DNA of 64,000 bases from an uncultured Chloroflexia bacterium (GTDB lineage: Bacteria; Chloroflexota; Chloroflexia; QHBQ01; JADMIH01), in assembly GCA_963797095.1 (NCBI GenBank), contig CAWCNY010000002.1, positions 32,001-96,000 of the forward strand, given 5' to 3'. A program made the position numbers and the translations under genes. A model generated the notes under the pieces. That model was not told the DNA's origin. It saw nothing but the letters and a program-made list of their open reading frames with translations, and did not search any database. Numbering within the stretch: the stretch's first letter is position 1; the number at the start of each line of letters is the position of its first letter. Shown piece by piece: positions 12,448-31,100 of this stretch.

Positions 12448-12540
12448 GTAACCACCTTCCTGCGCAATCCTGTTCGTATCCATACGTATCGTTACATATT
12501 ATAACACTACTTGCTTCGTCCTGCTTCTCTGCCTTTTCCC

Positions 12541-12825: not shown

Positions 12826-12898
12826 CTGCCCCTCCTCTTACCCGTAGACCCTTTCCATTTCCTCAGGAACGCTATCCGCATGTCAATCAGCCTGCGCC

Positions 12899-13574: not shown

Positions 13575-13657
13575 TTCCTCGACCTCTCTCAGTCGTGAAA
13601 TAGAAGTGTTACAGAAACGGGACTGTATGAGCCATTCACGGGAATCTCCAGGTTTGA

Positions 13658-15052
13658 TTACGGCTCATTGCCCCACCGGTAGCCTTCCGGCGGCAGGCTT
13701 ATATTGACTGCCACTCGGTCGGCCCTGGCTTTGGCTTCACCGACGTGGGCTGTATAGCTGAGCCTACCGGCCAACATCAACGGATAAAGCCCCATCTCCG
13801 GATAATCGAGCAGGGTACGGTGGGCGCTGAAGAACTGGTTGAGAGCCTCGATTGCCAGCGTTAACGCCCTGACCTCCCGCTCGCTTGGCCTTATCGGTTC
13901 ACTATGCGCCACCAGCCTGTGGAATGAAGGCACGGCTTCTCGCGATGGGTATTTCAGCTTTCGCTCGGCCAGCCAGCTCAGATAGGTCGGATCGCTCTCT
14001 TCTTCGGGGTCGAAATAGAGCAGCAGGCTGTCCTCAATGGCTTCCAGGTATTCTTCTTTGTCCATAGATTCGTCCGCTTCTTCGCCTACTTCGTCGTCTG
14101 TAGCGATGCCTTGAGCCTCCATCATCGTAGATAGCATCTCACGCAGGGCCTCCGGTGGTACTTCATCCACCGGCGCACCCAACTGCCGCATCAACTCTAT
14201 CAACTCGCCTACTCTCTGATCCGCTTTCTCAATCGGCTTATCTATTGATGCTTCTGCATCTACCGCTGTTTCTGCCACTTCGCGCTCCATGCGCGCCTCA
14301 CCGCGCTGTAAGATGCGCTCGAAAGCCTCAAGGGAATAGTAGAAAGCCACGCCGTATACTTCACCGGCGTTGCCGAGAACAACAGCGTAGAGGGTTTCTA
14401 CATCCTGTTGGGGTCCGTGTCGACCCAGTTCAATGGCGATCGGTAGATCACTGCCCATGTATTCCCACGGGGCACGACGCCAATAGCTGGCCGCCGCCTT
14501 GTAGAGAGGTGGTAGTAGTACTTCAGCAATAATCCACTCAAAAGGCTCAGGCGGATCCTTCCCGGCGTCCCCATTGGCGCCCAGTGCTGCGGACAGGTCG
14601 CGAAATGCTTCTTCATAGTCCGGCAAGTGTTCTGCATATTCAATGGGTATGCCGAGAGGAGCAAGCAAATGGCGCGCGGCCTCGGCCAGCACTGGATCGT
14701 TGATTATTATCCTCGTGGGAAGGCCAGGTTCGGGTGAGGGGAAGGGAATTGCAACAGGGGTAGCCACCGGCCTGGCAAGAGCCTCTACAAGTAGTTGAAG
14801 CGATTCGGTGATTCCGTCATCGCTGCTTTCGGCGGGGTTGATCAGCTGAACAGCACGGACGAAGCCGCTATCCGCCTCCACCCACAACGCTATCTGCGGT
14901 TGAACGGCCTGCTTATTTTCATAGATGTATACCCCCAATGGCCGCTTTCCACCCTGGATCACTAAACCGCTACGGCGCGGCAAGGTCGCCAATTGCGCAA
15001 TGATCGCTTGCAATCCGGTTGGATTGAGAACTTTCCGCTTAGTTCTTGCCAT
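13658..15052 (-). CDS. Conserved hypothetical acidic protein
   Basis: 464-aa ORF; YWRRAPW, VVLGNAGEVYGVAFY; purine-rich RBS. Confidence 0.75.
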   Translation of the reverse strand: MARTKRKVLNPTGLQAIIAQLATLPRRSGLVIQGGKRPLGVYIYENKQAVQPQIALWVEADSGFVRAVQLINPAESSDDGITESLQLLVEALARPVATPVAIPFPSPEPGLPTRIIINDPVLAEAARHLLAPLGIPIEYAEHLPDYEEAFRDLSAALGANGDAGKDPPEPFEWIIAEVLLPPLYKAAASYWRRAPWEYMGSDLPIAIELGRHGPQQDVETLYAVVLGNAGEVYGVAFYYSLEAFERILQRGEARMEREVAETAVDAEASIDKPIEKADQRVGELIELMRQLGAPVDEVPPEALREMLSTMMEAQGIATDDEVGEEADESMDKEEYLEAIEDSLLLYFDPEEESDPTYLSWLAERKLKYPSREAVPSFHRLVAHSEPIRPSEREVRALTLAIEALNQFFSAHRTLLDYPEMGLYPLMLAGRLSYTAHVGEAKARADRVAVNISLPPEGYRWGNEP

Positions 15053-15398
15053 GGCCGGCGGCCCCCCTTTCACGCTGTGCTCGGTTACCAGATTATTCTA
15101 CACTTCATCGATTGCATTGCCCAATATCACAATATCATACGAGACCTGAGCCAGATTCCTGGATTGCTCGCCGGTGGGATTACTCCGATTTAGATTATTC
15201 ATGACTTGATACGAAATGGACTATTTCGAACATCGCCGGGCTGGCGTCGCCGAGAGTTGAATTACAGCGCTGGCGATTGTACCACACTTCGATTTACTCG
15301 AACATCGACTATTTTCTCACCTGAGCTCCTGCAATCCCATTATCCACCTCGATCGTCTATCTTGGAGCCTAGCACGCATAACCCCGCACTTTTATCCG

Positions 15399-15438
15399 GT
15401 TGCTACACTTGTTGCTACACCTGGACCTGAATTGCTAC
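15399..15438 (+). repeat. GTTGCTACAC x2 plus TTGCTACA, arm-type-like sites
   Basis: Same orientation as 10131-10155; 60-100 nt from the tRNA 3' end. Confidence 0.75.
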
Positions 15439-15467
15439 AAAAATACGCCGGAACAGCGTTCCGGCGT
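15439..15467 (-). terminator. Intrinsic terminator of tRNA-Arg
   Basis: Minus strand ACGCCGGAAC-GCT-GTTCCGGCGT followed by ATTTTT. Confidence 0.8.
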
Positions 15468-15497
15468 CGCTTTTCGTGCGTAAATCTGCTACCAAAA

Positions 15498-15574
15498 TGG
15501 CGCGCCCGGAGGGATTCAAACCCCCGACCCTCTGATCCGAAGTCAGATGCTCTAGTTCGCTGAGCTACGGGCGC
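15498..15574 (-). tRNA. tRNA-Arg(TCG)
   Basis: GCGCCCG acceptor stem, TCTGA-CTTCGGA-TCAGA anticodon arm, GGGGG-TTTGAAT-CCCTC T arm, encoded CCA; 77 nt. Confidence 0.96.
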
Positions 15575-15699
15575 AGGACTACACAGACTTTTAGCTTTTC
15601 TAGGCGTAAAACGAGGGTCAAGAAGGTGCTACTGCTCTCGAAATTAGCCGATGGTTTGACATGCTCAATCTGATTAGATGCTGTGTCAAACCACTATTT

Positions 15700-15728
15700 A
15701 GCTTACTAAACTAGCTCATTTGTGTCAA
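15700..15728 (-). promoter_or_regulatory. Sigma70-type promoter for the intact tRNA-Arg, inside element C
   Basis: TTGACA-17-TAAGCT; homologous to 27375-27403. Confidence 0.7.
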
Positions 15729-15730
15729 GA

Positions 15731-15812
15731 CGCCCGGAGCATCTGAATCGTCTGAGGGCAAGCTCGAAGTATCTCGCTTGGCTAGGGGTCGGGGGTTTGA
15801 ATCCCTCCGGGC
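15731..15812 (+). pseudogene. Inverted degenerate tRNA-Arg-like sequence
   Basis: 15786-15812 is identical to 27 nt of the tRNA variable loop, T arm and acceptor 3' strand; GCCCGGAG at 15732 can pair with CTCCGGGC. Confidence 0.6.
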
Positions 15813-16647
15813 AGCCTTTAGTGACCGTACAGCTATCAATCTCCCAAAATCGGTCGGCTGGACTTCGATGCGGGCCTACAGCCCGCAAGTAATAGGATGT
15901 GGCCCCCCCCGGGGTTGGGGCCCCTCAAATCTGTCTGCACCGACCCTGTGGAAAAGTCGGATGCGCTTGACATAGTGTCGTAACATGCATCCAGCACAAA
16001 GAGCCAGGACGGGCTTTGGCGGGCAAGCCCTGGCTCTGAGTGCGGGTTGCGACTTTCGTCGCTTCTCTTACATACGTGCGGCTGAGGAGCACGCAGGCAA
16101 CAGGTGTTGCAACGGGGAGTATAACACAGTAGACATGAGCTAACAATGTGGAAAAGGTGGAAAACTCGAACCTGTGACATCACTTGCGTGTTCTGACGCC
16201 GCTAGCTGAACGGAGAAGAAGCATGAAAATAAGGTTTGAGACGGAGTACAGAATTGGGGGCCGCAAGGTATCGCAACGCGAATGGTTGGACCATATGCTA
16301 AGCAAGCAGCCGAACGGATTGCCCGGAACTGTGAGGCAAGAATTAGGTGCCCGGAGCATGGGAAGCCGCCCAAGGTGACATATCTTGGGGGGAGGTTCCA
16401 TATCGAGGGGTGCTGTGAGAAGGTAGTTGAGTTGACGAAACGTGCGCTGAGTCGTTGATATTGCCAGTGGGCAGAACTAGGGAGAGCAGGACCGCCACCT
16501 GCTCCCTTTGGTCTGCATACAACAACTAGTGTTGGTTTGTAGTATATTATTGTAGCGATGCACATCCTTGTGGCGAAGTTGCAGTGACAAAGGATTTCCC
16601 GGTACTTTTCGGCGTTCGTGTGGCGGGCGCTGTTCTACGAGGTACAC

Positions 16648-17856
16648 ATGACTCACCAAAGTATTATCAGCTTGGATGACATTCTTGCTCTTGTGGGCAA
16701 GCTAGACGATACGCCCGGCCTAGACGCGCCCAGGGAGCGTTTTCGTAATCACCTACAGAAGATAGTGGAAGTAGGGCAGCTTCGCGACTATGTTGAAACT
16801 TGCTTGAGGGCTTCAGGGGAGCAGTACGCACGCGCTCTCCAAGACTTAGTGAACTATGCAGGCAACTTCTTTGGTTTCCATGTGACCTATGGTAGGTACC
16901 AAGGAATATCTGGCGAACATAACTTTGATGGACGCTGGGAGGCTCCCGGCGGCCTCCATATAGTCATTGAGACCAAAACCACGGAAATCTACCCAATCAA
17001 AACGAGCAAACTTCTAAACTACATCAACGAACTGGTTGCTGCTGGGCAAATCCCCAAACAAGAGGATGCCTTGGGTCTGTATGTGGTAGGCCATCCGGAC
17101 CCTGAGATACAGCAACTAGAAAACGCAATTGTGGTGCAAAAGCCGATTCCGAATTTGCGAATTGTGTCGGCCCTATCCTTGCTGTCGCTGGCTGAGATGC
17201 GACAAGCCTATGGGCTCAATGATGATGACGTGTTAAGCATCCTCCTGCCCTCAGGGCCACGAATTGACCCACTCATAATGCTTATTGACCGCCTGGTGGC
17301 TGAAAGAGAAGCGGAAGCAACGATGGCGAGTGAGCAGAAGGTAATAAGGACAACAGTCGAAAAACTGGGGCTGCCGGAACCTACTTTACAAGCCTCCAAG
17401 TTTGTCATTCCCGATACAGGCACCATCACCTTCTGGATTACCCCGGTTAGAGACGATGAAGGGGAGACTGCAGAACAGACCATTCAGAGGCTGGTGGGCG
17501 AAGAGCATATTTACGCTTTCGGAGAGAAAACGCCCGGTCGTAGGAAGATAAAGTCGGGCGACGTGATTTGTTTCTATGCTGCGGGGCGTGGTGTCATTGC
17601 AGATGCTAGAGTAACATCGCCCCCAATAAAGAGGCCACACCCGCGGGTCAAGCAACCGGACAAGTATCCGTGGGTGTTTCGCATAAAGGATACACACCTC
17701 TATTTGGAAAACCCGGTTGTCATTGACGGGGCACTAAGGAGTCAACTTGACAGGTTCCAAGGGCGCGACCCAAACGGGCCTTGGGCATGGTTTGTTCAGG
17801 CTACACACGATGTTTCACAGCACGATTTTGAACTTCTAACACGACAGAAAGGCTGA
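16648..17856 (+). CDS. PD-(D/E)xK nuclease-like N-terminus plus EVE/PUA-like C-terminal domain protein
   Basis: FDGRW...IVIETKT; FWITP...IKSGDVICFYAAGRGVIADARV...YPW; stop 2 nt before the R-M gene. Confidence 0.7.
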   Translation: MTHQSIISLDDILALVGKLDDTPGLDAPRERFRNHLQKIVEVGQLRDYVETCLRASGEQYARALQDLVNYAGNFFGFHVTYGRYQGISGEHNFDGRWEAPGGLHIVIETKTTEIYPIKTSKLLNYINELVAAGQIPKQEDALGLYVVGHPDPEIQQLENAIVVQKPIPNLRIVSALSLLSLAEMRQAYGLNDDDVLSILLPSGPRIDPLIMLIDRLVAEREAEATMASEQKVIRTTVEKLGLPEPTLQASKFVIPDTGTITFWITPVRDDEGETAEQTIQRLVGEEHIYAFGEKTPGRRKIKSGDVICFYAAGRGVIADARVTSPPIKRPHPRVKQPDKYPWVFRIKDTHLYLENPVVIDGALRSQLDRFQGRDPNGPWAWFVQATHDVSQHDFELLTRQKG

Positions 17857-17858
17857 TT

Positions 17859-20800
17859 ATGCCGGCGCCACAATCCATCCTTTCCCACATTGAGCGCTTC
17901 GACAATGACCGACAAGCCTACAAATCCGGCGTCTATAATGAGGCGCAGGTTCGGCGCGAGTTCCTGGACCCCTTCTTCAAGGAGCTAGGCTGGGATGTAG
18001 AGAATGAAGGTGGTGCGGCGGTTGCCTACAGAGACGTAATTCATGAAGACACGTTGAAAATCGGTGAGACTACGAAAGCCCCGGACTACTCATTCCGCAT
18101 AGGCGGCACTCGAAAGTTCTTTGTTGAGGCCAAAAAGCCGTCTGTCAACTTGGATACGGACCCTAGACCAGCTTACCAACTGCGGCGCTATGCCTGGTCT
18201 GCAAGCCTACCCCTAAGCATCCTCACCGATTTCGAGGAGTTCCTGGTTTATGATTGTCGAATAAAGCCGGACGCCTACGACGGTGCGCGGGTGGCCCGCG
18301 CCATGTATCTCAAATACACGGAATATGCGGATAAGTGGGACGACATTGCCGCGCTCTTCTCTCGCGAGGCCGTGCTCGCCGGGTCGCTTGACAAATATAC
18401 CGAATTGCTTAAGGCCAAGACAGGCTCGTCCACTGTTGATGCTGATTTCCTAAAGGAGATTTCAGTCTGGCGCGAGATGCTAGCACAAGACTTGGCAGCG
18501 CGGAATCCGCACCTAACTCAACGCGACCTCAATTATGCTGTGCAGATGACTATCGACCGTATTATTTTCCTGCGTATTAGCGAAGACCGGGGCATTGAGC
18601 CATATGGCAGATTGCTGGAAGCACAACAGGGAGAAAGAGTGTATGCGCGGCTGTGTCGGCTCTTCGAAGCTGCCGACGACCGCTACAATTCGGGCCTGTT
18701 CCACTTCCGCGACGAGAAGGGCCACAACGAGCCGCACGATGAGCTAACCCCGGCACTGACTATACACGACGACACACTCCGGCGTATCATCACCCGCCTT
18801 TACTACCCCGATTCGCCCTATGCCTTTTCAGTCATGCCGATTGAAATTCTGGGGCAGGTTTACGAGCAGTTCCTGGGCAAGGTTATTCGCCTGGACGAAT
18901 CTCGTAATGTTGAGGTTGAGGAGAAGCCAGAAGTACGCAAGGCGGGCGGCATCTACTATACGCCCACATACATCGTGGATTACATCGTAAAACAAACTGT
19001 CGGCAAACTCCTGGAAGGCAAGACGCCGAAGCAAGCCGTCGACTTTCGTATTGTGGACCCCGCGTGCGGCTCCGGTTCATTTCTCATCGGCGCATACCAA
19101 TACCTTCTCAACTGGCATCGCGACTGGTATGTGGCTGACGGCACACAGAAGCACAAGAAGGAGCTTTATGAGGCTTCAGGAGGCGAGTGGCGACTAACTA
19201 CGAATGAGCGCAAAAGGATACTACTAAATAACATTTATGGCGTGGATATCGACCCCCAGGCGGTAGAGGTCACAAAGCTCTCACTCCTGCTTAGAGTGCT
19301 TGAGGGAGAAACCGGACAAACCTTGGCAACGCAGCTGCGGATGTTCTACGAGCGGGCGCTGCCGGACCTGAGCAGCAATATTAAGTGCGGTAATTCCTTA
19401 ATAGGTTATGATTTCTACAGCGCGACACAGGCCAGCTTTCTGTCGCCGGAGGAACACAGCCGCATCAACGTGTTCAACTGGCACGAGGCTTTTCCCCAGG
19501 TGTTCAAGCGCGACAGCTCTGGATTTGATGCTGTGATTGGCAACCCGCCGTACATTCGTATCCAGACTATGCAGGAGTGGGCTCCCGTAGAAGTCGCACA
19601 CTACAAGCGACGATATGTTTCGGCCAGCAAAGGCAACTACGACGTGTATGTTGTGTTTGTGGAGAAGGGACTTTACCTGCTCAATAAGGGCGGACAACTT
19701 GGCTTCATCCTGCCCCACAAGTTTTTCAATGCTCAGTATGGCGAGCCGCTGCGCGCCCTGTTGGCACAGGGGCACCACTTAGCTGAAGTGGTGCATTTTG
19801 GCGACCAACAGGTGTTTTCAGGCGCGACGACCTATACCTGCTTGCTCTTCCTTGAAAAACGCGGCTCCTCTGAAGTGCAGATTGCCATGGTTGAGAATCT
19901 GGACCAGTGGCGCAGGAAGTCCCAGGCTGTGTACGGAACGGTTCCAGCAGAAGCTATTGCACCTTCTGACTGGAATTTCTATGTCGGAGAGGGTGCTGAC
20001 TTGTTTGGCAAGCTAAGACAGGTGCCAACAAAACTGGGTGCTATCGCGGAACGCATTTCGCAGGGGATTCGTACAAGCGCCAATGAGGTGTACGTGCTCA
20101 ACATCGTGGACCAAGCGACCGATGTACTAATCGTCCATTCACAGTCGTTGGGTAAGCAGGTGGAGGTCGAGCGGGCCGCGGTGACACCCTTCCTTCAAGG
20201 CCGCGAAATCAAGTCATATAGGGTACTTCCTTCCGGTAAGGTGGTGATTATCCCTTATCACCTGGCGAATGGCCGCGCAAAGCTCGTTCCCGAGGATGAA
20301 ATGAAGACTCGTTTCCCGCTCACTTTGGCCTATCTTGTTGCAAATAGGGCATACCTAGAGGAACGGGAACGGGGCAGGATGCATGGCTCGTCCTGGTATG
20401 CCTTCGTCTATCCAAAAAACATCGAATTGATGAAGTCGGCCAAGATTCTTGTGCCGGACATTGCCGATAGAGCAGCATTTGCACTAGATGAAGCCGGCGA
20501 ATACGCCTTCACAAGCGGTTATGGCATTACATTGAGACCTGATGTTAGCTTGTCGCCCAACTATGTTTTGGGCCTACTGAACAGCAAAGTCCTGGACTTC
20601 TACCTAAAGCGTGTCAGCACGACTATGCGCGGCGGCTTTTTCCGATACTTCACACAGTACGTTGAGCAATTGCCGATGCGTGCTATCAATTTCGCTGACC
20701 AGGCCGACAAAGCCCGACACGACCACATGGTATCACTTGTAGCACGGATGGTAGACTTTTACAGACAATCAGCCGTTGCCAAGACACCGCACGACAAGAC

Positions 20801-20909
20801 TGCAATCCAGCGCCAGATAGACGCCGCCGACGGGCAGATAAACTCCCTTGTGTACGAGCTTTATGGGCTGACAGATGAGGAAATCCGAATTGTTGAGTCG
20901 GATAAATAG
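17859..20909 (+). CDS. Type IIG restriction-modification enzyme (Eco57I-like fusion, N6-adenine methyltransferase)
   Basis: NEAQVR...PDY...VEAK nuclease motif; DPACGSGSFL motif I; IGNPPY motif IV; TaqI-C-like TRD. Confidence 0.92.
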   Translation: MPAPQSILSHIERFDNDRQAYKSGVYNEAQVRREFLDPFFKELGWDVENEGGAAVAYRDVIHEDTLKIGETTKAPDYSFRIGGTRKFFVEAKKPSVNLDTDPRPAYQLRRYAWSASLPLSILTDFEEFLVYDCRIKPDAYDGARVARAMYLKYTEYADKWDDIAALFSREAVLAGSLDKYTELLKAKTGSSTVDADFLKEISVWREMLAQDLAARNPHLTQRDLNYAVQMTIDRIIFLRISEDRGIEPYGRLLEAQQGERVYARLCRLFEAADDRYNSGLFHFRDEKGHNEPHDELTPALTIHDDTLRRIITRLYYPDSPYAFSVMPIEILGQVYEQFLGKVIRLDESRNVEVEEKPEVRKAGGIYYTPTYIVDYIVKQTVGKLLEGKTPKQAVDFRIVDPACGSGSFLIGAYQYLLNWHRDWYVADGTQKHKKELYEASGGEWRLTTNERKRILLNNIYGVDIDPQAVEVTKLSLLLRVLEGETGQTLATQLRMFYERALPDLSSNIKCGNSLIGYDFYSATQASFLSPEEHSRINVFNWHEAFPQVFKRDSSGFDAVIGNPPYIRIQTMQEWAPVEVAHYKRRYVSASKGNYDVYVVFVEKGLYLLNKGGQLGFILPHKFFNAQYGEPLRALLAQGHHLAEVVHFGDQQVFSGATTYTCLLFLEKRGSSEVQIAMVENLDQWRRKSQAVYGTVPAEAIAPSDWNFYVGEGADLFGKLRQVPTKLGAIAERISQGIRTSANEVYVLNIVDQATDVLIVHSQSLGKQVEVERAAVTPFLQGREIKSYRVLPSGKVVIIPYHLANGRAKLVPEDEMKTRFPLTLAYLVANRAYLEERERGRMHGSSWYAFVYPKNIELMKSAKILVPDIADRAAFALDEAGEYAFTSGYGITLRPDVSLSPNYVLGLLNSKVLDFYLKRVSTTMRGGFFRYFTQYVEQLPMRAINFADQADKARHDHMVSLVARMVDFYRQSAVAKTPHDKTAIQRQIDAADGQINSLVYELYGLTDEEIRIVESDK

Positions 20910-21201
20910 CCGGGGGTCAGAGACCAAGACCATCAACACCAGAACGAAAGCCCAAGAGAATCAAACGCAGCCTATATAGCTCTATGGTATGAGGTGTTGT
21001 GAGTTCACGACGTGGAACATTGCCTCAATGTCATTGTCAGCGCCCGCCTCCTTGAATAAGGCAATTGCCTCATCCGGCGTGCATAGGCCGTATTCTCGAA
21101 AGAAGGCGGTCGTAAAGTGCCAATCAGAAGGGCCAGATTTTTCGCCGTATTTCGTCTTGCGCCCCACAACATCGGCGAAAGCAACAAGGTCGCATAGCTC
21201 A

Positions 21202-21558
21202 CTAAGCCGCTTTAGCGCAGGATGAAGAACGCGGGGCGTTTTTGTAGGTATAGGCACGCTGCTTGTGTCGGCTCCAGGTCTTGTGTCGTTTCTTATGGCA
21301 TTTTGTACAAAGAGTACGAAGGTTGTCAAGCTCATTGTTGCCTCCCAAGCACAACGGGATAAGATGGTGGACCTCAAGGCGGCAGTTGCGCTTCTTGCAA
21401 TCCCTGCAAGTGAAGTGGTCGCGCAGGAGTGCCAAGCGGCGGATGGCGCGCCAATTGCGGCCTCGTGCAGCACGCCTACACTTGTCGGAGCAATATGCGT
21501 GAATATGGCTCTTCGGTGAGAAATCGGTTCCGCAACTTCGACATTTCTTGGTATTCAT
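21202..21558 (-). CDS. Small HNH endonuclease with N-terminal zinc finger
   Basis: CxxC...YCSDKC; RDHFTCRDC...EVHH...GG.N...NL.TLC..CH. Confidence 0.88.
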   Translation of the reverse strand: MNTKKCRSCGTDFSPKSHIHAYCSDKCRRAARGRNWRAIRRLALLRDHFTCRDCKKRNCRLEVHHLIPLCLGGNNELDNLRTLCTKCHKKRHKTWSRHKQRAYTYKNAPRSSSCAKAA

Positions 21559-21584
21559 CGTGCCGCCTCCTCATTTGTACCTGT

Positions 21585-21613
21585 ATTATACCAGTACAAA
21601 ACGTACTTGTCAA
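21585..21613 (-). promoter_or_regulatory. Perfect-consensus sigma70 promoter for the HNH gene
   Basis: TTGACA-17-TATAAT on the minus strand. Confidence 0.85.
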
Positions 21614-21691
21614 GGGGTTTGCGCAATATTGCTCGAAATTGGTCGGTCATAGTTTGGCAGCATGACGAGCAAAGCTAAATGTAAGAGCCTC

Positions 21692-21720
21692 TTGACAATT
21701 TAGTTTCTTACCTGTATAAT
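21692..21720 (+). promoter_or_regulatory. Perfect-consensus sigma70 promoter for the RHH-like gene
   Basis: TTGACA-17-TATAAT. Confidence 0.85.
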
Positions 21721-21752
21721 ACCTGCATGATATATTTGAGGAGGCATGACAA

Positions 21753-21953
21753 GTGGTAGAAAAGAACCCCAATAAGGGCGGCAGACCTCGCAAGGACACA
21801 CATGCAAGGCAGTTCCCCCTTTACATCTACATGATGGACGAGGAGAGCCTGCAGCAGGTCAAAGAAGCAGCAGAGCGACAAGGGCTTAGCTTCAGCACCT
21901 GGGCACGGACCGTACTGGTAAGAGAGGCACGGCGCATCTTGAGCGGCGAGTAA
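21753..21953 (+). CDS. Small ribbon-helix-helix-like DNA-binding protein
   Basis: GGRPRK, then VKEAAERQGLSFSTWARTVL; GGAGG RBS; paralogue at 27577. Confidence 0.72.
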   Translation: MVEKNPNKGGRPRKDTHARQFPLYIYMMDEESLQQVKEAAERQGLSFSTWARTVLVREARRILSGE

Positions 21954-22120
21954 TTGCCCAAATCGCCCCGCATATTGTAGAGACCCCCCGGTAACTTTCC
22001 ATTTGCCTTTCGGCAATTGTGTGGCCCCCCGGTTCTCTACTTGCCGCTACGCGTGTGACGCGACCCCAAAGCGGCCAACATAAGCACAACACGGAGGGAA
22101 ATGGTTATTAGTGCGGAGAT

Positions 22121-22402
22121 GTGCCCCTGGCGCTTATCCAGTCGTCAAGAGGAGGTAGTTTGTTGGAAACTTTGGAAGCAACGCCTGAAGTATGTGAGTC
22201 GCTCATATTCGATGCGCGTAACCGGCTAATGCTGGCCTATCTAGCTCGTGAAGATGGTGTTTCGGGCGCTTACGAGCGCTTGGAGGTCGAGCGTTGGCGG
22301 GTCAACCTGATGGAAAGCGAGATGGGGCGCCCCTGCCTCCCTGTGCTGACTGAGTTACGCGCATCGGGACAGCAGATTTATCTATTGGACCTTGACGATT
22401 GA
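22121..22402 (+). CDS. Hypothetical protein; likely start about 22162
   Basis: GGAGG RBS precedes an in-frame TTG. Confidence 0.4.
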   Translation: MPLALIQSSRGGSLLETLEATPEVCESLIFDARNRLMLAYLAREDGVSGAYERLEVERWRVNLMESEMGRPCLPVLTELRASGQQIYLLDLDD

Positions 22403-22987
22403 GCGCAGCGCCCCGCAGACCTGTGCGATAATGGGCACCGGGTCGGGGTAGCCATACTTACGCCGGGCGATTATGCAGTTATCGGGGAGCGTGTCAAGAG
22501 CAAATACCCTGAAAGATGATTGCTCCCCCCGATTGAAGCGTAGCCGCCCCGGCTCCGTTCCTGAACGCTGAACATAGTCTGCATGCCAGGCAGCGAAAAG
22601 CCTGAGGTCTATTATCGTCCAGGCTACGAGGCCGCTCTCATCAGGCGACTTGAACCCGTAGAACATCACATCACCTTCGCCATCAAGTATCTTGCCAAGC
22701 TCTGTTCGCCTTCCGCTTGGCACACTGGCGCGCAGAGTGATTTCACCTACATATCTCAGGTAGTCGTAAGCGCGTAGCCTAACTGCGATTCTCCGGTGGG
22801 GAAGGATTGCGTCGGTGTTCTTGTGTCGGTCAATATGAAGGGGCGCGCGTTGGATAGTGTACCGCCCGACAAGCGCGCCGATTTCCGGAAGTAGCATGTC
22901 GTCGCGAGACTGCTCAACGCGGCGGTCAACGTCGGCAACTTGATACAGTAACTGTCTTTGGAGCGTGGGTAATTCGGTGTCAATCAT
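22382..22987 (-). CDS. Phage-type hypothetical protein, possibly restriction-endonuclease-like fold
   Basis: SGRRTELGKILDG.GD..FYGF pattern, recalled from phage proteins; follows the primase-polymerase. Confidence 0.6.
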   Translation of the reverse strand: MIDTELPTLQRQLLYQVADVDRRVEQSRDDMLLPEIGALVGRYTIQRAPLHIDRHKNTDAILPHRRIAVRLRAYDYLRYVGEITLRASVPSGRRTELGKILDGEGDVMFYGFKSPDESGLVAWTIIDLRLFAAWHADYVQRSGTEPGRLRFNRGEQSSFRVFALDTLPDNCIIARRKYGYPDPVPIIAQVCGALRSIVKVQ

Positions 22988-23103
22988 ACTTAGTTCCTCA
23001 GTTCGATATGTGGGGCATAGTTAAGCCCCTAGTTGTAGTTCTAGGGGCAGCCAGCGAGCGGAATCCATTACTTGCTTCTAGTATTCATTACTTGCTTCCG
23101 CCC

Positions 23104-24618
23104 CTATACTCTATAAGGAGAATCCATCGGGGCATATTGCCTGTAATTACCGGGAAGGAAAAGCTTTGTTCGTCTCCCTCTGCCTGCAGCGACATCAAGC
23201 TGCTTGCCACTCGCATCACGAGCGTAGGCAACTATCCGCTTGAGCAGCAGGTTCTTCATAGCTTCTTGACAACGCTTCTGGGGAAGGGCGCACCAGGCCT
23301 CTAGGAATTGCCAGCTAAGGGGGGCCGGGTCACCATAGGTGTGGAGCCACCGCGCTTGGAAGAGAAGGTTGAGCTTGTCATAGACTATGCGGGTGTCTGC
23401 CTCGTCCAGCTCGTATGGCAGGGCTGGAAGTTGGACGCGAGCCGGTTGCACATACCCTGTCTCGACCATGAGGCGCAGATGCCATGTGACGGACCCTGAT
23501 TTGCTGGGACGCACCTCCTCAGGTGAGCGTGGGCGACGCAATGCAAGGGCATACGCGACTTCCGACATGAGAAGCGCCGGGCTTGCATCTGGCCGCACAT
23601 GGAAGTCTCTATAGACATAGACGCCATTCTGGCCGGGATAGATGCTTGCGGATGGACCATTCTCCTCGTGGCCCGGCAAGACACAAAGGAACGTCTTTCC
23701 GAAGGGCACATCAGGGATACCCATAAGCCTACATGCCGCCCGGATGAAGTCCTGGTCGCGGCTAGCATCTGTGAGGTACTCACCAACTAGGCCCCCCTCA
23801 GTTCGGGCGCACTCTGCTATGCGCTGTAGCGCAGCCTTGCGCTCCTGGAGCAAGTTGGGCATGATGAGGCTCTTCTGTGACTGCCTCCTGTTGGCATCGC
23901 TGCGGCCTGTGCTTGGCACTCTTGACCTACCTTCGGCCTGCATCAGCTTCTCAGCGAGCCAGTCGGGTAGACAAAGGGGCGGGCGCTCGTGAGGCCCGAA
24001 ACTTGCAAGCCAGGTGTACCGCCTGCCGGACTGGTGAAGGGAAGGCGGCAGTACCAGATAGCCGCCAACGCCGCGCACATCTACTCCGGGAGCCACTTTG
24101 CCGTTTGAAGCGCTAATGTATCGCCCCCCAGTCGAGAAGAAGAGATGCTCACCCCAACCTTCGCGACCGCTGCGGGCCTTTACGGTCTCTGTGAAGGCCG
24201 GGCCATGCTTCGCTATCCAGTCGTTCAAGGCCTCTATGCCTTCTTCTCCGTCCAGGTCTATTGCGACAAGATTAGCCCTTGCAGGTACGCACCCGATGCC
24301 GGCGTGCGCCCATCGCGTCCACCATTTGCTTATGACTTCACGGTTTGTGGAGGCATTTTTCAGGTAGTCTTTGATAAGGGGCTTTTTGTTGACGCTGTCC
24401 ACCGGGAATACTGGTATTCCGGCTTGGGCGTATGCGAGTGCCCACTCTAGCATATCAGGTGATTCGGTCTGGGTAGGGAGATAAGGAATTGGCTTCGTCT
24501 GCGTTATATTGGGTGCCGCCCCTGTCTTCACCGGAGCATAAGGGCGAACTCTTGGGCGGGTTGGTCGTGTAGTAATTGCGAGTGTCATTTGGCCCCCTAT
24601 TGTGGGCAGGTGCTCCAA
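23104..24618 (-). CDS. Bifunctional DNA primase/polymerase (Prim-Pol) replication protein
   Basis: ALAYAQAGIPVFP, WW..W..AGIG, AIDLD, GEHLFF, GVDVRG.GGYLVLPPS.H.SG..Y.W. Confidence 0.9.
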   Translation of the reverse strand: MEHLPTIGGQMTLAITTRPTRPRVRPYAPVKTGAAPNITQTKPIPYLPTQTESPDMLEWALAYAQAGIPVFPVDSVNKKPLIKDYLKNASTNREVISKWWTRWAHAGIGCVPARANLVAIDLDGEEGIEALNDWIAKHGPAFTETVKARSGREGWGEHLFFSTGGRYISASNGKVAPGVDVRGVGGYLVLPPSLHQSGRRYTWLASFGPHERPPLCLPDWLAEKLMQAEGRSRVPSTGRSDANRRQSQKSLIMPNLLQERKAALQRIAECARTEGGLVGEYLTDASRDQDFIRAACRLMGIPDVPFGKTFLCVLPGHEENGPSASIYPGQNGVYVYRDFHVRPDASPALLMSEVAYALALRRPRSPEEVRPSKSGSVTWHLRLMVETGYVQPARVQLPALPYELDEADTRIVYDKLNLLFQARWLHTYGDPAPLSWQFLEAWCALPQKRCQEAMKNLLLKRIVAYARDASGKQLDVAAGRGRRTKLFLPGNYRQYAPMDSPYRV

Positions 24619-24669
24619 ACGCGCCTGCCCTTCAGTGCTTTAAATCTGCAGTACGGCGAACTTTTCGCT

Positions 24670-24879
24670 TTAGCGCTTGTGGTCGATATAGGCTTCAGCA
24701 GCTTTCGCGGCTTCGGTGGGGTCGTTGAAAACCCCTGGAATAGCGCGACGCCCCGCCCCATAGATAGGGGTTATGCTTGCGCGGTATCGATACAGACGAC
24801 CTGCGGCCCTGCGAACTTCGATGGTGTAGTCCTTATACTGATATGCGTCTACCAGATTTACCCTTGTTCCAGCTTTCAC
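24670..24879 (-). CDS. Small hypothetical protein
   Basis: Coupled (ATGA/GTGA-type overlap) to the upstream ORF; GGAGG RBS. Confidence 0.55.
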   Translation of the reverse strand: MKAGTRVNLVDAYQYKDYTIEVRRAAGRLYRYRASITPIYGAGRRAIPGVFNDPTEAAKAAEAYIDHKR

Positions 24880-25079
24880 TTTGTATCACCTCCCTGGCTC
24901 TGAGTTGTTGCCCATTCTTGGGCTAAGGCGTATAAGAGGCGGCTAATGCAGCCGCGCTCTGTGATTCTTCCCGGTCCGCGTTTGTGGAGAAGTCCTCGTG
25001 CTCTGGCCATAGAGCGAAGGAGTTCTTCCGTCCGGGGTGTAACGGTAAGTAACAACTGCTTTTCCTTAGTCTGCTTCAC
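24876..25079 (-). CDS. Small basic putative DNA-binding protein
   Basis: GGAGGA RBS before GTG; first gene of the replication operon. Confidence 0.55.
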   Translation of the reverse strand: MKQTKEKQLLLTVTPRTEELLRSMARARGLLHKRGPGRITERGCISRLLYALAQEWATTQSQGGDTK

Positions 25080-25096
25080 TGCGTCCTCCTAATTCT

Positions 25097-25193
25097 GTAA
25101 CTGGATACCTATATTTATCCCCTCTACTTAATCAAGCAGGTTCGTATTCGTAACTGGATACCTATGTTTCCCCCTTCTACTTAATCAAGCAGG
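25097..25193. repeat. Two 44-bp imperfect direct repeats between divergent genes
   Basis: GTAACTGGATACCTAT...TCTACTTAATCAAGCAGG at 25097 and 25150. Confidence 0.9.
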
Positions 25194-25233
25194 CAGGTTT
25201 CTTATTCTGAAAGTTATCGGGTAGACTGTACAT

Positions 25234-25665
25234 ATGCTTTCTGCCCGACTTATCTTCGCGCACCCGGAACTATGTCAACCGCTAACCGGGCTATCGCCGG
25301 CTGACTTCCGTGCAACCGCCAAGGGAATCGGAGAGTACTACATAGACGAACGTGAAGCGCGGCTCAGTAGCCGCCCTCGCATCCGGGAAATTGGAGGCGG
25401 CTCGAAGCCGCTCTTGCCAGCAGACGTCATATTGCTGGGCATGATATGGCTACGCTGCCGCCCCACACAAAAGGCATTAGCGGCGCTATTTGGCAGAAGC
25501 GTGCCAACAGTTGGTCGTTACAAGCAGCTAGTAGAGCCAATACTGCTAGAAACGCCTTATGCCTTCCTTGCCACCCCAGACCCCGGACGGAAGCGCAGGC
25601 GCGATTTGGGTGAGTTGCGGGCGGACATTCCGGAGCTAGATAAGTTGTGGCGTCAGTGCCGCTAG
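25234..25665 (+). CDS. Stand-alone transposase-type HTH protein (HTH_Tnp_4-like), no DDE domain
   Basis: LTGLSPADF...GGG.K..L....ILLGMIWLR..PTQ.ALA.LFG.S..TV.R. Confidence 0.7.
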   Translation: MLSARLIFAHPELCQPLTGLSPADFRATAKGIGEYYIDEREARLSSRPRIREIGGGSKPLLPADVILLGMIWLRCRPTQKALAALFGRSVPTVGRYKQLVEPILLETPYAFLATPDPGRKRRRDLGELRADIPELDKLWRQCR

Positions 25666-25932
25666 TTCCTGCAACTTCATGCAAGATTTCCTGCAAGAAT
25701 TGCCTTTCGAATGAAGTCGGTTGAGGCCTGTTTTGAGCACGCTACCCATTCCCGTTGCGCTTGTCGCGCTGTATTTGTACGGGCTACGCGCCGCCCTGAT
25801 ACACGCACAGGCGATAGTGGGTAAGGCAATTGTTGGCGCTGCCTTACGCTCTCGCTTGCCCACAAATGAAAAGGGCCGCCCCTATAGGGCGGTTCTCGAT
25901 GGTTAACGTGCTTGCAGGGTCGGGGAGCCAAG

Positions 25933-27168
25933 CTAAGGAATCAGGCCGGCCTTCTTCAACCTCTTTCTGACACCCATATCAGACATCTGATACTTACGAG
26001 CTACTGCACGATAGTTGCTCTGCGCTACCTCCCTGGCAAGTACCTCAGCAGGAGGCAACTCCTTGGGAACTGCGTTCTTGCTTCGGGTGCCGCTGCCGTC
26101 TTCCAGGTGCAACTCGTGGCGCAGGTGGTCAAGGGGCCCGTATTTGGCATGTTCAGCCAGCAGGTCCTCTTTGCTGATGTTCAGGTAGTATCTGCGGGTC
26201 GTGTCGAACTGCTCATGTCCCAGCGCTTCTTGCAGCGTAGCGCCCCTCATGCCGTTCCGGTGAGCCTGGGTTGCAAATGTGTGCCTGCAAACGTGGGGAT
26301 GGACAGGCACCCGCGTGATGCCCGACAACTTACTCAGTCGCGTGAATACCAAGCGCAACCCTGCATAAGTCAGGGGAGCACCCTGATGGCTGACCCACAA
26401 TTCCTGAAAGGGCGTGCTCATCTTCAATCGGAAGCGGTGGAGGTATGCCCATAGCTCTCGCCTAGCGAAGTTGCCCACCACTACCTGCCTCTCCCTGTTG
26501 CGCTTCCCACGCACTGTAAATAGCCCCTCGCCTGGGTTGATGTCGCCCACTTTGAGGCTTAGAAGTTCTCCGGCCCGGATACCGCTATCCAGCAAGACAG
26601 CAAGTATGCAGCGGTTGCGCTGCACGGTGAAGGGTAGGCCGAAGTTCTCACAGGCAGCGAATAACTGGGCAATCTCTTCGTCGGTAAACACAGTCACCTG
26701 CCAGCGATTAGGCAGGGACGGCATATCCACCAGGCTGAATGGGTTGCGTGGGAGGTCCGCTTCCTTCGTCGCCCAACGAAAAAAGGCGCGCAGGCTTCGG
26801 GCGAAGCCATGCACGCTGGCAGGGGTTAATGGTTTGCGGCTGCTGGGGCGGCACACACCCCACCGGCCACTGTCGCCTGGGTCCTCCTGCAAATAGACCA
26901 GGAAGGCCCGTATGTACAAGGGGGAAATACTAGAGAGGTTAGTTGGATACCCCTCTTCCTTTAGAAACCATCGGAAGCGCTCCAGATTCCACTGATAGAA
27001 TTGGATTGTTCGGGGGCTGTGTCGCTGCGAGCGATGCTTCAGCAGGAACCCTTGAACATAGAAGTTGAAGTCGTCCGCCGATTCTTGAGTAGACTGTTGG
27101 GGGTACAAGCCGCTGCCGGGCGCTTTGAGGTTTGAGTAGCGATTCCGAATTAGATGCTCGTTTGACAT
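25933..27168 (-). CDS. Tyrosine recombinase/integrase with a C-terminal HTH-like extension
   Basis: SAM-like N-terminal domain; GIRAGE (R), GK, HVCRH, LGH and RRYY catalytic set intact. Confidence 0.95.
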   Translation of the reverse strand: MSNEHLIRNRYSNLKAPGSGLYPQQSTQESADDFNFYVQGFLLKHRSQRHSPRTIQFYQWNLERFRWFLKEEGYPTNLSSISPLYIRAFLVYLQEDPGDSGRWGVCRPSSRKPLTPASVHGFARSLRAFFRWATKEADLPRNPFSLVDMPSLPNRWQVTVFTDEEIAQLFAACENFGLPFTVQRNRCILAVLLDSGIRAGELLSLKVGDINPGEGLFTVRGKRNRERQVVVGNFARRELWAYLHRFRLKMSTPFQELWVSHQGAPLTYAGLRLVFTRLSKLSGITRVPVHPHVCRHTFATQAHRNGMRGATLQEALGHEQFDTTRRYYLNISKEDLLAEHAKYGPLDHLRHELHLEDGSGTRSKNAVPKELPPAEVLAREVAQSNYRAVARKYQMSDMGVRKRLKKAGLIP

Positions 27169-27285
27169 GGGTGTTGTCTCCTATTATAGGAGAGCAATAA
27201 CCCCTCAGCTACTCAATTCACGCCTGAAATCGCTGTCTGGCTAGGTTCTAGGCCCGCAACGAGGTGTAATAAGGTCAAACTCGCA

Positions 27286-27326
27286 ATCCGAAGTCAGATG
27301 CTCTAGTTCGCTGAGCTACGGGCGCA
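27286..27326 (-). repeat. 5'-half of tRNA-Arg(TCG); att site
   Basis: 41-bp identity with 15535-15575; ends just past the anticodon loop. Confidence 0.95.
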
Positions 27327-27374
27327 AATATCATGAACCGCTGGCTCGTCCAGATAAAGCAAACTATCGTAGTT

Positions 27375-27403
27375 AGCTTACTTCAACAGCTTATTAGTGT
27401 CAA
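27375..27403 (-). promoter_or_regulatory. Sigma70-type promoter reading into the tRNA 5' half and the integrase
   Basis: TTGACA-17-TAAGCT, 50 nt upstream of the half-tRNA. Confidence 0.7.
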
Positions 27404-27576
27404 GAAAGCTTGAAATAATGGGTGCACAGAAGCGATGCGCTGGCCTTGTACAACATTCAGATCAAGAAATCCAAGAATACATCAATAGACCATCGACCTT
27501 GCCAACAACACCGTAACCAGCGTATAATTAGTAGTGGTATGATAATATACCGAATCATTGTCTGGAGAGAGCGCCT

Positions 27577-27795
27577 ATGACCAATGGGATGGATGCAGAA
27601 ATGCCTGCACGTAGACGGCCCGGCCGCCCACCCAAAGAAGTCCGCATGAAAGAATTCCCGGTGCATTTTTATATGCAATCGCGGGATAGCTTGGACAGAT
27701 TGAAAAGAGCAGCCGAGACCGAAGGTATGTCTCTTAGCACCTGGGCGCGTACCGTATTACTCAGAGAAGCGCGACATATTCTGCACGATGAATAG
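27577..27795 (+). CDS. RHH-like protein, paralogue of 21753-21953
   Basis: PGRPPK...FP...M...SL...K.AAE..G.S.STWARTVL.REAR.IL shared with the paralogue. Confidence 0.72.
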   Translation: MTNGMDAEMPARRRPGRPPKEVRMKEFPVHFYMQSRDSLDRLKRAAETEGMSLSTWARTVLLREARHILHDE

Positions 27796-27860
27796 AAGCA
27801 TGAGAGCGTGCACAAGCAGGGTCATGTAAGAGTGTTAGAGCAAATGAAAGGAGACAGAAA

Positions 27861-28130
27861 TTGGCTAGTGTGACGAATCCTGATCACCGTATGATTAGTA
27901 AGACCCCCCTGAACCAGGTGGAGACAAGGCGAGGCAATATTATGCAATCGCCCTACATGTTCAGGAATCTGCCTGGAGAATTGCGTCGTTTGCAGGCATT
28001 CGTACAAGATGTGCGCGTTATGTTGGGCGAGGATGTGCCCGCCCTTATTACGGAAGTGAAGCACCTGCGCCAGGAGAACAAGCGGCTGGAAGCAAGGTTA
28101 GAAGCACTAGAGAACCATAATCAGCAATAA
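27861..28130 (+). CDS. Hypothetical protein with C-terminal coiled coil
   Basis: EVKHLRQENKRLEARLEALE; AAGGAG RBS. Confidence 0.5.
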   Translation: MASVTNPDHRMISKTPLNQVETRRGNIMQSPYMFRNLPGELRRLQAFVQDVRVMLGEDVPALITEVKHLRQENKRLEARLEALENHNQQ

Positions 28131-28178
28131 TCTTAGCAATCTCTCTCCTAACCCCTGATAACCTATATTTTCTGAATC

Positions 28179-31100
28179 TTAGATGGCACCCACGGCCAGC
28201 AGAGTCACGATGGTCGCGGCAAAGAGGAAAACCGCCAGCCACAGCGGGGCATTCCTCCTGTATAAGGTCCATCCATCCGCCGGTGGCTCGGAAACCGATG
28301 TGAACGCCAGCACCAGCATAGTAGCGAACAGGCCGAGTCGCATGCTGGGCCAACCCATAAGCCAATAGATAACCCCAAAGACCACGGCCAGCGCCAGGTT
28401 AGCCAGCGTGCCCGCAAACATGATGCGCGCCGCCGGGCTGAGGTTGAACCAACCGCTCCCACGCACAGAAACCACGCTTGAGGAGCCAACAGGAACCGCT
28501 TCGAGCGCCGGTGCATCGCCCGTATCGGCTGCCGCTTCGGTCTGCACCTCATATAGAAGGTCGCTCTCTTCGGCGGTGCGTGCTTTCCTGATATTGCCGC
28601 CGCCCTCAGTTGCTTGCATGCCGCCGTCTGCTGTGGTCAGGCGCGTGACGTTCTGCCAGCCGTACATGAAGCCGAATGGTATGCTCACGATACCGAGCAA
28701 TATACCCATAGGCCAGATATGGTGGAGGGTGGATGCACCTGCCTTCCCTGCCACCCAGCGCTGGGCAGCCTCATTCACGCCGAAGGCCAGCAGAGCCATC
28801 ACGAAGGCTACTGGAAGGAACACCAGTGCTACCTCCCACGAACCATGCCCGGCGGCCCAGGCCAACCCTAACATCCCTATCACAGCGGGTATCAGGATCG
28901 AAGTCAGCAAGGCGTTTCTTGTCGCACTGCCCGGCGACACAAGGCGTGGGAAGACAGTCTTGAGCCTGACATCCAGGAGCACGGCCAGGCGGCCTATTAC
29001 CCCCCTTGTCGGGATCAACCCCATGCGATTGGTCATACGGTCGTTGCCGACCAGGGTGTGGAGGAGAAGTAACAACAGGATCGGAAGCGCTCCTGCCTTC
29101 ACCCAGAAATCGAGCGCAGGCGCGTCGGAGGCGGGCAGAATGTCGCGCTCGTCGTAACGCAGGTTGTAGCCCCAGCGCAGGCTGTCCGGGCCGATAGCCT
29201 TGATAGCAGAGGCCTGGGCATCTTCGGCCGTAAAAAAGTTGCCGATACCTGCTTTGTAAGCAGCCGCGGCCAGGTTGTGATCTCCCAGCACGTAAGCCGG
29301 GCTGGCTTTGCCCGCAAGCTCAAGATAAGCCTGGGCTGCCGGATTACCCATCTGCGAATAGAGCACACCCAGGTTGTTCCAGGCCGGGGCCAGCGCCGGG
29401 GAGAGAAGATAAGCTTGCTTGTAGCGGAAAACAGCTTGCGAAAGGTCGCCGCCGGGGGCGCGCCGTAATGCATCGCCTGTTCGGAGAGCTATAATAGCCG
29501 GAACCGGCGTGCCATTGCCCATCCAAAGTGGGCGTCCCACACCGCTGAAGTTCTCGGCATCTTGCAGGTTGAGGATTATGCCTGCCACGCGGTATGCATT
29601 GGCGGCTTCCTTCTCCTGGCCGCCCGCTTCAAGGAGGAGAGCGCCCTGGTATAGCAGTTCTCCGGCGTCCACGTCGTTCGACACGGTGGGCGAGATGGTT
29701 ACCGGGTCATATCCTCCCGCCTTCAAGACATTGATGCCGTCAGTGGTGGTCTTACCGGATGCGAGCGCCGATGCGCGTGCCTGGCCCGCCAGGGCGGCCG
29801 CACGACCGGGTTGCCCGGCACCCAGGCCGTCCAGCAGAGCCCATGCCTTGCCGTAAGTATCGGCGGCTTTCGAATAAAGGGCAGCGGAAGCGTCGCCCGT
29901 AACGGCCTGGGCAGCCGCCTCGTATGCGTAACCGCCATACAGGTAGAGCAGTCCGCCCACTGCGGCGGGTTGGCTGTCAGCACCGGCAGTGATATTGGTC
30001 ACGAGGCTATCGATCAGGTCGGACTTATTCTGCTTGCTCCATGCCATAGCGCGCACAAGATGGGCGTCCATGGTTTCCTGGGCAGCATCGCGGGCCGCTA
30101 GAGAGGCAGTGGTGGTGAGAACGGTGTTTGCCACGCTCACCATATCACCAGCAGAGAGGTCTTTTGCCAGGATACGAAGGGCGGTCTCGGATTGGGCCAG
30201 CGCGCCATCTGTATCGCCACGGGCGAGGAGAGATTGCGAGTAGGAAATGAGAAGAGGCGCGTCGTCCTGGCCGTTGATCGAGAGGGCCGTCTGGTACTCA
30301 CTCTGAGCTTCCGATTCGCGGCCCAGGAAACTCAATAGGCGCCCGCGGTCGTGGTGGATGCGCCCTTGAAAATCTTTGGCAAGCCCGCCGGAGGAAGCCA
30401 GGGCAGCCATATCGCTCAGCATGCGCTCGTAGGCGTGCTGCTCAAGGCCCAGGCGGAGCCATTTGCGATAAAGGTTGTAGGTGGCCTTGCCGGAGAAGAG
30501 AGCGTCGTAGTAGGTCTTGTAGGCGGTGGCCGGGTCGCGCCGTGCCCACTGTGCGTCGCCTAGAGCTTCCTGTGCCAGGTCTCGCGCTTCGTAAAAGGAG
30601 TTCGCCACGTTCTCAGCCGCATCGGGTGCCAGCTGCGCCGTAACGACCTGGTTGAGAAGCGTTATCGCCTCATCAGGCTCGCCCATCCTGAGGGCAGAGA
30701 GCCCCATCCAGAACCGGATAAGCGCGAAATCCTTGGTTTCATCCTTGTCAACCACGGTGCGCATAGCTTCGTAAGCCGACAGGTAGTTGCCCGTAAGGAA
30801 GTTGGCGAGACCCCAGTTATAGGTGTACTGCCATACATCCGGGTTGTCGTTCGCGGCCTGCTGGAAGCCTAAGACCGCCTCACGCTCGCGATTGTATCGG
30901 ATCTCAAGCGTGCTTGATGTGAGCGATACAAGCATGCTCAGCATAGCAAGGCCATTTTGGGCCTTATCGGTGTCATCCATATCCTGATACGTTATCGCCA
31001 GCGAATTTAGCTTGGTACGGTCGGGGTTGGCCTCAAGACCCGAGTTTTTCACTCGGATTTCCAGGCTACCCGTGCTTGAGGCAAATACCTGGCCGACGAT

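Follow-up and report, generated by a model that had tools for sequence, protein, structure and literature searches.

What becomes of a tRNA gene when an integrating element severs it from its own promoter? The problem is absent from the usual tRNA islands, which rebuild the 3' half of the gene, and is posed by those that regenerate the 5' half. The latter are uncommon; Zhao and Williams reportedly described, going by the title of their 2002 work, a tRNA element in reverse orientation. Here we analysed a 64-kb window (the whole stretch of 64,000 nt, positions 32,001 to 96,000 of contig CAWCNY010000002.1 of an uncultured Chloroflexia bacterium), in which an element of ~11.7 kb, element C, adjoins a tRNA-Arg(UCG) gene. 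Element C is a 5'-regenerating tRNA island, a layout that is rare but has been described before. We consider it likely that it is a 5'-type island of the anticodon loop with an attP comprising tRNA nt -1 to 40, and that the DNA flanking it on the outside is the stump of an earlier, related 5'-type element.

Element C carries the 5' half of its target gene

The tRNA-Arg(UCG) gene was the sole tRNA called in the window (by ARAGORN and Rfam), and its sequence is 100% identical to that of its counterpart in three related species. Element C is bounded by an exact 41-nt direct repeat (Table 1), of which the 6.0-Mb genome holds only two copies when up to 3 mismatches are allowed, and alignment to the tRNA showed that this repeat corresponds to nt -1 to 40, i.e. 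the 5' half through the anticodon loop. The intact gene lies at the integrase-distal end, and the displaced fragment at the other end is co-oriented with it. A 5' fragment upstream of a full tRNA gene is one of the configurations that the Islander filter accepts as a valid island, according to the passages of PMC4383910 in which the filter is laid out. An earlier sequence-only reading of this locus had already recognised the repeat as the tRNA 5' half and placed the intact gene far from int, and it had assigned the DNA upstream of the rebuilt gene to the element, which follows from the identity of the repeat; on all of this our analysis agrees with it.

The 5' block of element C ends at nt 40 and the anticodon loop comprises nt 33-39, so that the block of identity reaches the anticodon loop. 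Downstream of the gene, two tRNA-Arg 3' fragments were found (Table 1), and the only tRNA stretch that the 5' block and these 3' blocks have in common is nt 31-40, including the 7-nt anticodon loop. This suggests that both kinds of island at this tRNA-Arg cross over in the anticodon loop, within nt 31-40. Element C would then have recombined with the gene inside the anticodon loop, its attP carrying the 5' part of the gene, and the integration would have pushed the resident 5' half, together with its upstream DNA, to the integrase end. At the far end the tRNA would have been rebuilt from the 5' half of the element and the resident 3' half, to be transcribed from inside the element via one of three candidate promoters (P1, P2 or P3). 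An earlier, related 5'-type element would have left its tRNA-proximal stump outside element C, the integrase end of that element, the native promoter and the first displaced fragment having been deleted later, and a 36-nt match between the DNA upstream of the two tRNA 5' copies would reflect the shared ancestry of two element arms.

A second tRNA-Arg(UCG) gene is located outside the window, in an array of ~27 tRNA genes with repetitive spacers (genome contig 2, 1272514-1283690), and the island tRNA is therefore not the sole copy of this isoacceptor.

The layout recurs in a relative of the integrase

The integrase of element C has the full catalytic R-K-H-R-H-Y set (R198, K222, H292, R295, H318 and Y328), invariant across the 7 sequences that were aligned. 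A role as XerC/XerD chromosome-dimer resolvase was rejected, as the protein scores far below both NCBIfam equivalog cut-offs (149.8 bits versus 335 for XerC and 132.2 versus 329.6 for XerD). A Pfam scan recognised only a SAM-like and a catalytic domain and no lambda-type N-terminal arm-binding domain; binding of accessory sites by another part of the protein is possible. We also observed a C-terminal extension of ~50 residues (ELPPA...RKRLK..GL; 25933-26090) that is common to the homologue in genome G004 and absent from the other five aligned relatives, and that may be a DNA-binding tail.

We examined 20 integrase homologue loci (31-54% identity) in a set comprising 401 genomes of the class, 40 genomes of the order and 401 genomes of the phylum, plus a single metagenome contig. 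A full, co-oriented tRNA just upstream of int, the classical layout, was present in 13 of the 20. Among the others there was one locus with a 3' fragment, one with a tRNA on the other strand and one (G028) with a tRNA-Phe 5' fragment, and four showed no tRNA upstream of int, two of these having less than 200 nt of upstream sequence. Wider integrase scans yielded 3 genome-contig, 2 metagenome and 4 viral loci, all 23-34% identical; of the loci beyond the 20, L039-L041, L065 and L079-L082 were left out of the tRNA inspection.

G028, from another family of the same order, holds the closest integrase homologue found (52-54% identical). Its int lies behind the tRNA-Phe 5' fragment, the full tRNA-Phe is found 4.8 kb away at the integrase-distal end, and the exact direct repeat measures 57 nt (tRNA-Phe -5 to 52). 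The PrimPol of this element is 37% identical to that of element C over its whole length, and a search with PrimPol as bait recovered G028 again. Upstream of the rebuilt tRNA-Phe we found TTGACA-17-TAAAAT (TTGACA at -113, then a near-consensus TGGTAAAAT) and, further upstream, TTGACA-18-TATATT, from which the G028 element clearly appears to bring good promoters. The earlier reading had raised the question whether integrase relatives share 5'-fragment att sites as well as a promoter copy: the 5'-fragment layout does recur in G028, but a matched promoter copy does not, since its inside and outside promoters have nothing in common beyond the consensus hexamers.

Two further relatives appear to show the other arrangement. 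G037 (52% identity over the 157 residues available) has a full tRNA-Gly beside int and a 3' fragment (nt 21-75) on another contig. G004, a species of the same genus (40% identity), has a full tRNA-Met beside int and a 3' fragment (nt 31-77) at 77 kb downstream, and looks classical. Upstream of the full gene, at a distance of 1.1 kb, G004 also has a 5' fragment of tRNA-Met (nt 1-32; L058/L060, contig 2, 87301-88552), which is comparable to the short stump proposed here; the 1.1 kb holds small membrane open reading frames (ORFs) and a transposase remnant. In element C, G028, G004 and G037 alike, int is located downstream of a tRNA piece and co-oriented with it, and what differs is the tRNA half that is carried.

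Some other loci were set aside. The G002 contig (with a type IIG restriction-modification enzyme, PrimPol and Replic_Relax) has an integrase that is only 19% identical and no tRNA upstream of it, and at the G319 locus obtained with the PrimPol bait neither a tRNA nor an integrase was seen. At L048 (G104 contig 25), seven CRISPR-like direct repeats with sub-threshold Rfam scores adjoin the integrase homologue.

Candidate promoters and binding sites in the element arms

The DNA upstream of the rebuilt tRNA is all element-borne, so transcription of this tRNA must start inside the element. P1, P2 and P3 (Table 1) all lie within 155 nt inside the element, upstream of the rebuilt tRNA, and judged by sequence any one of them may drive the gene. 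P1 is the site to which the earlier reading had drawn attention, as TTGACA-17-TAAGCT on the minus strand both inside and outside the element, and we read the boxes at the same places (15728-15723/15705-15700 and 27403-27398/27380-27375). They are part of a 36-nt stretch upstream of both tRNA 5' copies (15695-15730 versus 27370-27405) that is identical at 29 of 36 positions and that contains, as a sub-range, the 27/33 match noted before (15698-15730 versus 27373-27405). The similarity is above chance: blastn gave E = 6.8e-5 (852 x 1425 nt space), none of 3000 shuffles and 2 of 3000 random genome window pairs attained the ungapped score of 22, and the score of the gapped alignment (22.5 over 46 columns) was reached by 0/2000 shuffles. 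A third genomic TTGACA-N17-TAAGCT (contig 2, 767665) was discarded, having the hexamers alone in common with the 36-mer.

It is possible, though in our view somewhat unlikely, that the 36-mer and the other TTGAC boxes serve mainly as recombination or regulator binding sites, and that the tRNA is driven from another start, e.g. P3 or read-through. Such a role would fit the distribution of GTTTGAC, as four of the six occurrences in the window lie within ~130 nt of the two ends of element C and form two inverted pairs, and also the occurrence of GTCAAA, in this genome (G000), G028, G037 and G004, on or close to the start codon of int; moreover, the -10 boxes are weak and escaped the promoter scanner. 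It agrees less well with an integrase in which no arm-binding N-domain was recognised, and with G028, where the TTGACA at -113 and the near-consensus TGGTAAAAT together make a good promoter; the outside copy, furthermore, would go unexplained unless the stump model were also true. Protein binding may be a role of the TTGAC boxes in addition to, or in place of, promoter activity; the two are compatible.

At the other end of the element, the outside box faces int through the half-tRNA, just as had been claimed: int is co-oriented with the half-tRNA and begins, with its ATG, 118 nt downstream, and a terminator scan found no terminator-like site between the two. We infer read-through from the outside promoter into int. 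A similar box would precede int both in the excised circle (in the order P1-P3, half-tRNA, int) and in the integrated state, and for this reason a switch of int expression by integration state, as proposed earlier, is not implied. In a host new to the element, it is the native promoter of the tRNA that would end up facing int, as it does in the classical relatives, where int lies behind the tRNA.

The int leader shows one further feature, an imperfect palindrome CTCCTATAATAGGAG over the ribosome-binding site (27172-27190, minus strand) that contains TATAAT and that could be an operator, a weak promoter or a hairpin sequestering the ribosome-binding site. Folding of the half-tRNA/int leader predicted a hairpin over the ribosome-binding site with z = -1.78, and 13 of 200 shuffles folded as well.

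Near the rebuilt tRNA we observed a 27-nt inverted copy of its T arm (nt 45-71, 100% identical) at 15786-15812 on the plus strand, 211 nt upstream of the gene. Paired with the T arm itself, this copy forms one half of a 27-bp inverted repeat that encloses the 5' part of the tRNA together with the promoter region. The possibility of a hidden tRNA-like gene was rejected, as there was no tRNA match (E up to 10) and the fold was no better than that of shuffles (z = 0.21). Such a copy is absent from G028.

The DNA outside the element is not ancestral

The related genomes used for comparison are all from other species. In eight of these species a TPR protein orthologue lies upstream of the intact tRNA (tblastx), with its stop codon 61-121 nt before the tRNA; here, the stop of the TPR gene is 853 nt from the displaced tRNA fragment. 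The TPR tail in the eight relatives resembles the IVTLLAVGAI seen here. The intervening DNA has a GC content of 48.5%, versus ~57% around it, and region 27327-28200 was without a match in 40 relatives. Of 23 relatives, 19 have a box of the form TA[TA]A[AC]T (in many cases TGGTATAAT) 15-43 nt upstream of tRNA-Arg, and most of the 71 tRNAs of this genome have TATAAT-type boxes close to the gene, whereas no TA[TA]A[AC]T box occurs within 50 nt upstream of either tRNA 5' copy here. These counts include two unpublished loci, L010 (G022) and L012 (G021); without both, the numbers become 17/21 boxes and 7 TPR relatives.

We also found that the flank encodes a ribbon-helix-helix (RHH)-like protein related to the 66-aa ORF of element C (31/59 residues identical, 53%, E 6e-23), and the ~6-Mb genome has only these two copies. 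The sole match between flank and element at the DNA level is the 36-mer, in the arm preceding the tRNA half, and a decayed GTTTG adjoins the outside 36-mer. The flank starts exactly at the tRNA fragment. Because the 853 nt are foreign and the RHH paralogue occurs only inside the element, the outside promoter is probably that of a stump of an earlier related element and not that of the host.

Could the flank instead be an unrelated small insertion with an RHH and a coiled-coil gene, its likeness to the element stemming from gene conversion or exchange with the resident element? We regard this as doubtful. Neither an integrase remnant nor an outer 5' fragment was seen in or beyond the flank, and homologues of the coiled-coil ORF occur at loci without a nearby tRNA or integrase (two of them, L063 and L034, were considered as tRNA-linked loci and dropped when no tRNA was found nearby), as such an insertion would predict. 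Its exact start at the tRNA fragment and the position of the sole DNA match in the arm preceding the tRNA half speak for a link with the element, however, and an RHH identity of 53% is too low for a recent conversion.

Less probable still is the explanation given in the sequence-only reading, namely that the outside TTGACA-17-TAAGCT is the host tRNA promoter, of which the element brings a matched copy that preserves tRNA expression while the host promoter is handed to int. The two boxes are indeed well above chance in their similarity (29/36), each precedes a 5' half of the tRNA, and the arrangement toward int is the one claimed. The outside copy, however, is situated in 853 nt that the conserved TPR/tRNA junction lacks in 8 relatives and that were matched in 0 of 40; the native promoters are of the TATAAT type, close to the gene (19/23 relatives and most of the 71 tRNAs) and unlike the 36-mer; the flank encodes a paralogue of an element gene; and the G028 promoters inside and outside the element differ, sharing the consensus hexamers only. 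The claim of a promoter swapped between host and element did not hold up against these data.

That the 41-nt repeat arose by misassembly, or as a chance partial copy with no site-specific integration, is highly improbable: its borders coincide exactly with the 5' end of the tRNA and fall in the anticodon loop, the genes between its copies include an integrase and a PrimPol, and the layout is repeated in a genome of another family (G028).

Several observations weigh against the reading of element C as a 5'-type island next to the stump of an older one. The integrase relatives yielded no more than two 5'-type cases, element C and G028, the arms of which have no alignable sequence in common beyond the TTGACA boxes, and G037 appears to be of the 3' type. 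The promoter scanner flagged none of P1-P3, nor the outside TTGACA-17-TAAGCT site, and the -10 boxes of P1-P3 are all weak, TAAGCT agreeing with TATAAT at 3/6 positions only. The stump itself is without an integrase remnant or an outer 5' fragment, so that deletion of the integrase end of the earlier element, the first displaced fragment and the native promoter has to be assumed. Finally, the RHH paralogue in element C lies 6 kb from the tRNA end of the element and not at the matching position.

Gene content and other features of the window

The coordinates of the main features are given in Table 1. Element C further contains several ORFs without a family match. Virion or packaging genes were not found among its 14 ORFs (PHROGs matched only the integrase, the primase-polymerase and the HNH protein), and an integrative plasmid-like element fits better than a prophage or phage satellite.

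Table 1. Features of element C, its tRNA target and the adjoining DNA (window coordinates)
Feature	Position	Strand	Remarks
Second, more decayed tRNA-Arg 3' fragment	5772-5817	-	nt 33-77
tRNA-Arg 3' fragment	9950-9996	-	nt 31-77, 98%; marks classical 3'-type island downstream
Terminator-like hairpin and T-run	15445-15467	-	directly 3' of tRNA-Arg
Regenerated tRNA-Arg(UCG)	15498-15574	-	element-derived 5' part, resident 3' part; ARAGORN tRNA-Arg(tcg); Rfam 63.9 bits
Direct repeat, copy 1	15535-15575		exact 41 nt; tRNA nt 40 to -1
Element C body	15576-27285		repeat-to-repeat period 11,751 nt
Candidate promoter P3, TTGACC-17-AAAGCT	15593-15621	-	weak -10 at -24..-19; spacing as native tRNA promoters
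Inverted GTTTGAC pair	15654-15660, 15685-15691	+, -	candidate arm/accessory protein-binding sites
Candidate promoter P2, TTGACA-17-GAGCAT	15661-15689	-	-35 box starts at -115, close to the -113 of the strong TTGACA-17-TAAAAT promoter in G028
Candidate promoter P1, TTGACA-17-TAAGCT	15700-15728	-	inside 36-nt repeat 15695-15730; site of the sequence-only reading
412-aa ORF	16618-17856	+	no family match
Type IIG restriction-modification enzyme, Eco57I/MmeI-like	17859-20909	+	Pfam; PADLOC PDLC03604, E 2e-265
HNH endonuclease	21202-21558	-	
66-aa ORF, read as RHH-like	21753-21953	+	no family match; paralogue of outside-flank ORF
PrimPol-type replication protein	23104-24618	-	PF09250, E 1e-36
143-aa protein	25234-25665	+	weak helix-turn-helix match below Pfam cut-off
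Tyrosine integrase (int), Xer-like	25933-27168	-	ATG 27168; PF00589, E 6e-29
int-proximal arm with two GTTTGAC	27160-27280		27160-27166 over int start codon; 27274-27280, 6 nt from repeat
Direct repeat, copy 2	27286-27326		exact 41 nt; displaced 5' tRNA fragment adjoining int
Non-ancestral flank, putative stump	27327-28178		outside 36-mer 27370-27405; promoter-like 27375-27403 (-)
72-aa RHH-like ORF of flank	27577-27795	+	
Coiled-coil ORF of flank	27861-28130	+	
TPR protein gene	28179-31538	-	ancestral upstream neighbour of tRNA-Arg

On the other side of the tRNA, both 3' fragments are followed by similar flanks (GCCAAGTT..GTGC.TAA), like the native downstream flank of relative L004. Between the two fragments lies a gene for a DnaE-type DNA polymerase III alpha subunit of 1240 aa (5967-9689, minus strand), and no integrase was found in 5772-9996. 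The stretch 9997-15497, beside the tRNA 3' end, is an island remnant with genes for AF2212-like, Uma2, PIN and Phd-type antitoxin proteins and a DUF7309/DUF6930 protein, again with no integrase; three TTGCTACA repeats are present at 15395-15445, and a transposase-like fragment at ~15175-15309 matches one in G004. Further on, an FMN riboswitch (5483-5611, minus strand, 111.6 bits) is located upstream of NMT1-like and ABC-permease genes.

Implications

With element C and G028 there are two related bacterial cases whose element-borne upstream DNA is open to direct reading. They can be compared with classical 3'-type relatives of the same integrase clade, and the opposite side of the very same tRNA is taken up by 3'-type islands. 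As a proposal of which we are somewhat less than half convinced, we suggest that one 5'-type integration after another has done away for good with the promoter that the host had at this tRNA, its native TATAAT-type promoter being gone, so that mobile-element promoters would serve the tRNA with or without excision of element C, and that the integrase clade alternates between attP sites restoring the 3' half and the 5' half, with the anticodon-loop crossover and the int orientation left unchanged. If the stump reading is true, a host promoter can be lost and replaced by mobile-element DNA, as a lasting cost or legacy of integration; if the clade switch is true, the change between 3' and 5' type would depend simply on the tRNA half that the element has kept. 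For island-finding software, the message is that a 5' fragment lying upstream of a tRNA gene is the sign of a real island.

Comparison with known systems

Islands of the 5' type are already in print, and element C is a new bacterial example. A narrow literature search, made without supplements, turned up no description of a host losing a tRNA promoter in the wake of serial integrations of the 5' type. The pTN3/TKV4 elements of Thermococcales likewise have an att site of 41 bp, theirs in tRNA-Leu and including the anticodon, as given in the passages of PMC5495485 on integration. These elements are archaeal, and by the same passages their attP is within the integrase gene, and integration splits that gene, whereas the integrase ORF of element C stays whole, 118 nt from the repeat. 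In the Klebsiella islands, the parts of 10.1101/2020.11.02.365908 on insertion sites place those of arg2A-VII and integrase clade I.d upstream of tRNA-Arg and all others downstream; their reported sublocation is the D-loop, unlike the anticodon loop used here, and integrase lineage and host differ as well. The dusA-specific integrases, in the portions of PMC4482086 that deal with their target, are directed at a protein-coding gene and belong to an integrase family different from that of element C. A further comparison is with the classical 3'-regenerating anticodon-loop islands of G004 and G037, which have an integrase of the same family (40-52% identity), the same placement of int and blocks that also reach the anticodon loop. 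These islands carry tRNA nt 31-77 and 21-75, respectively, and the full tRNA stays beside int and keeps its own promoter, whereas in element C it is the 5' half that is carried and the rebuilt tRNA stands behind DNA of the element.

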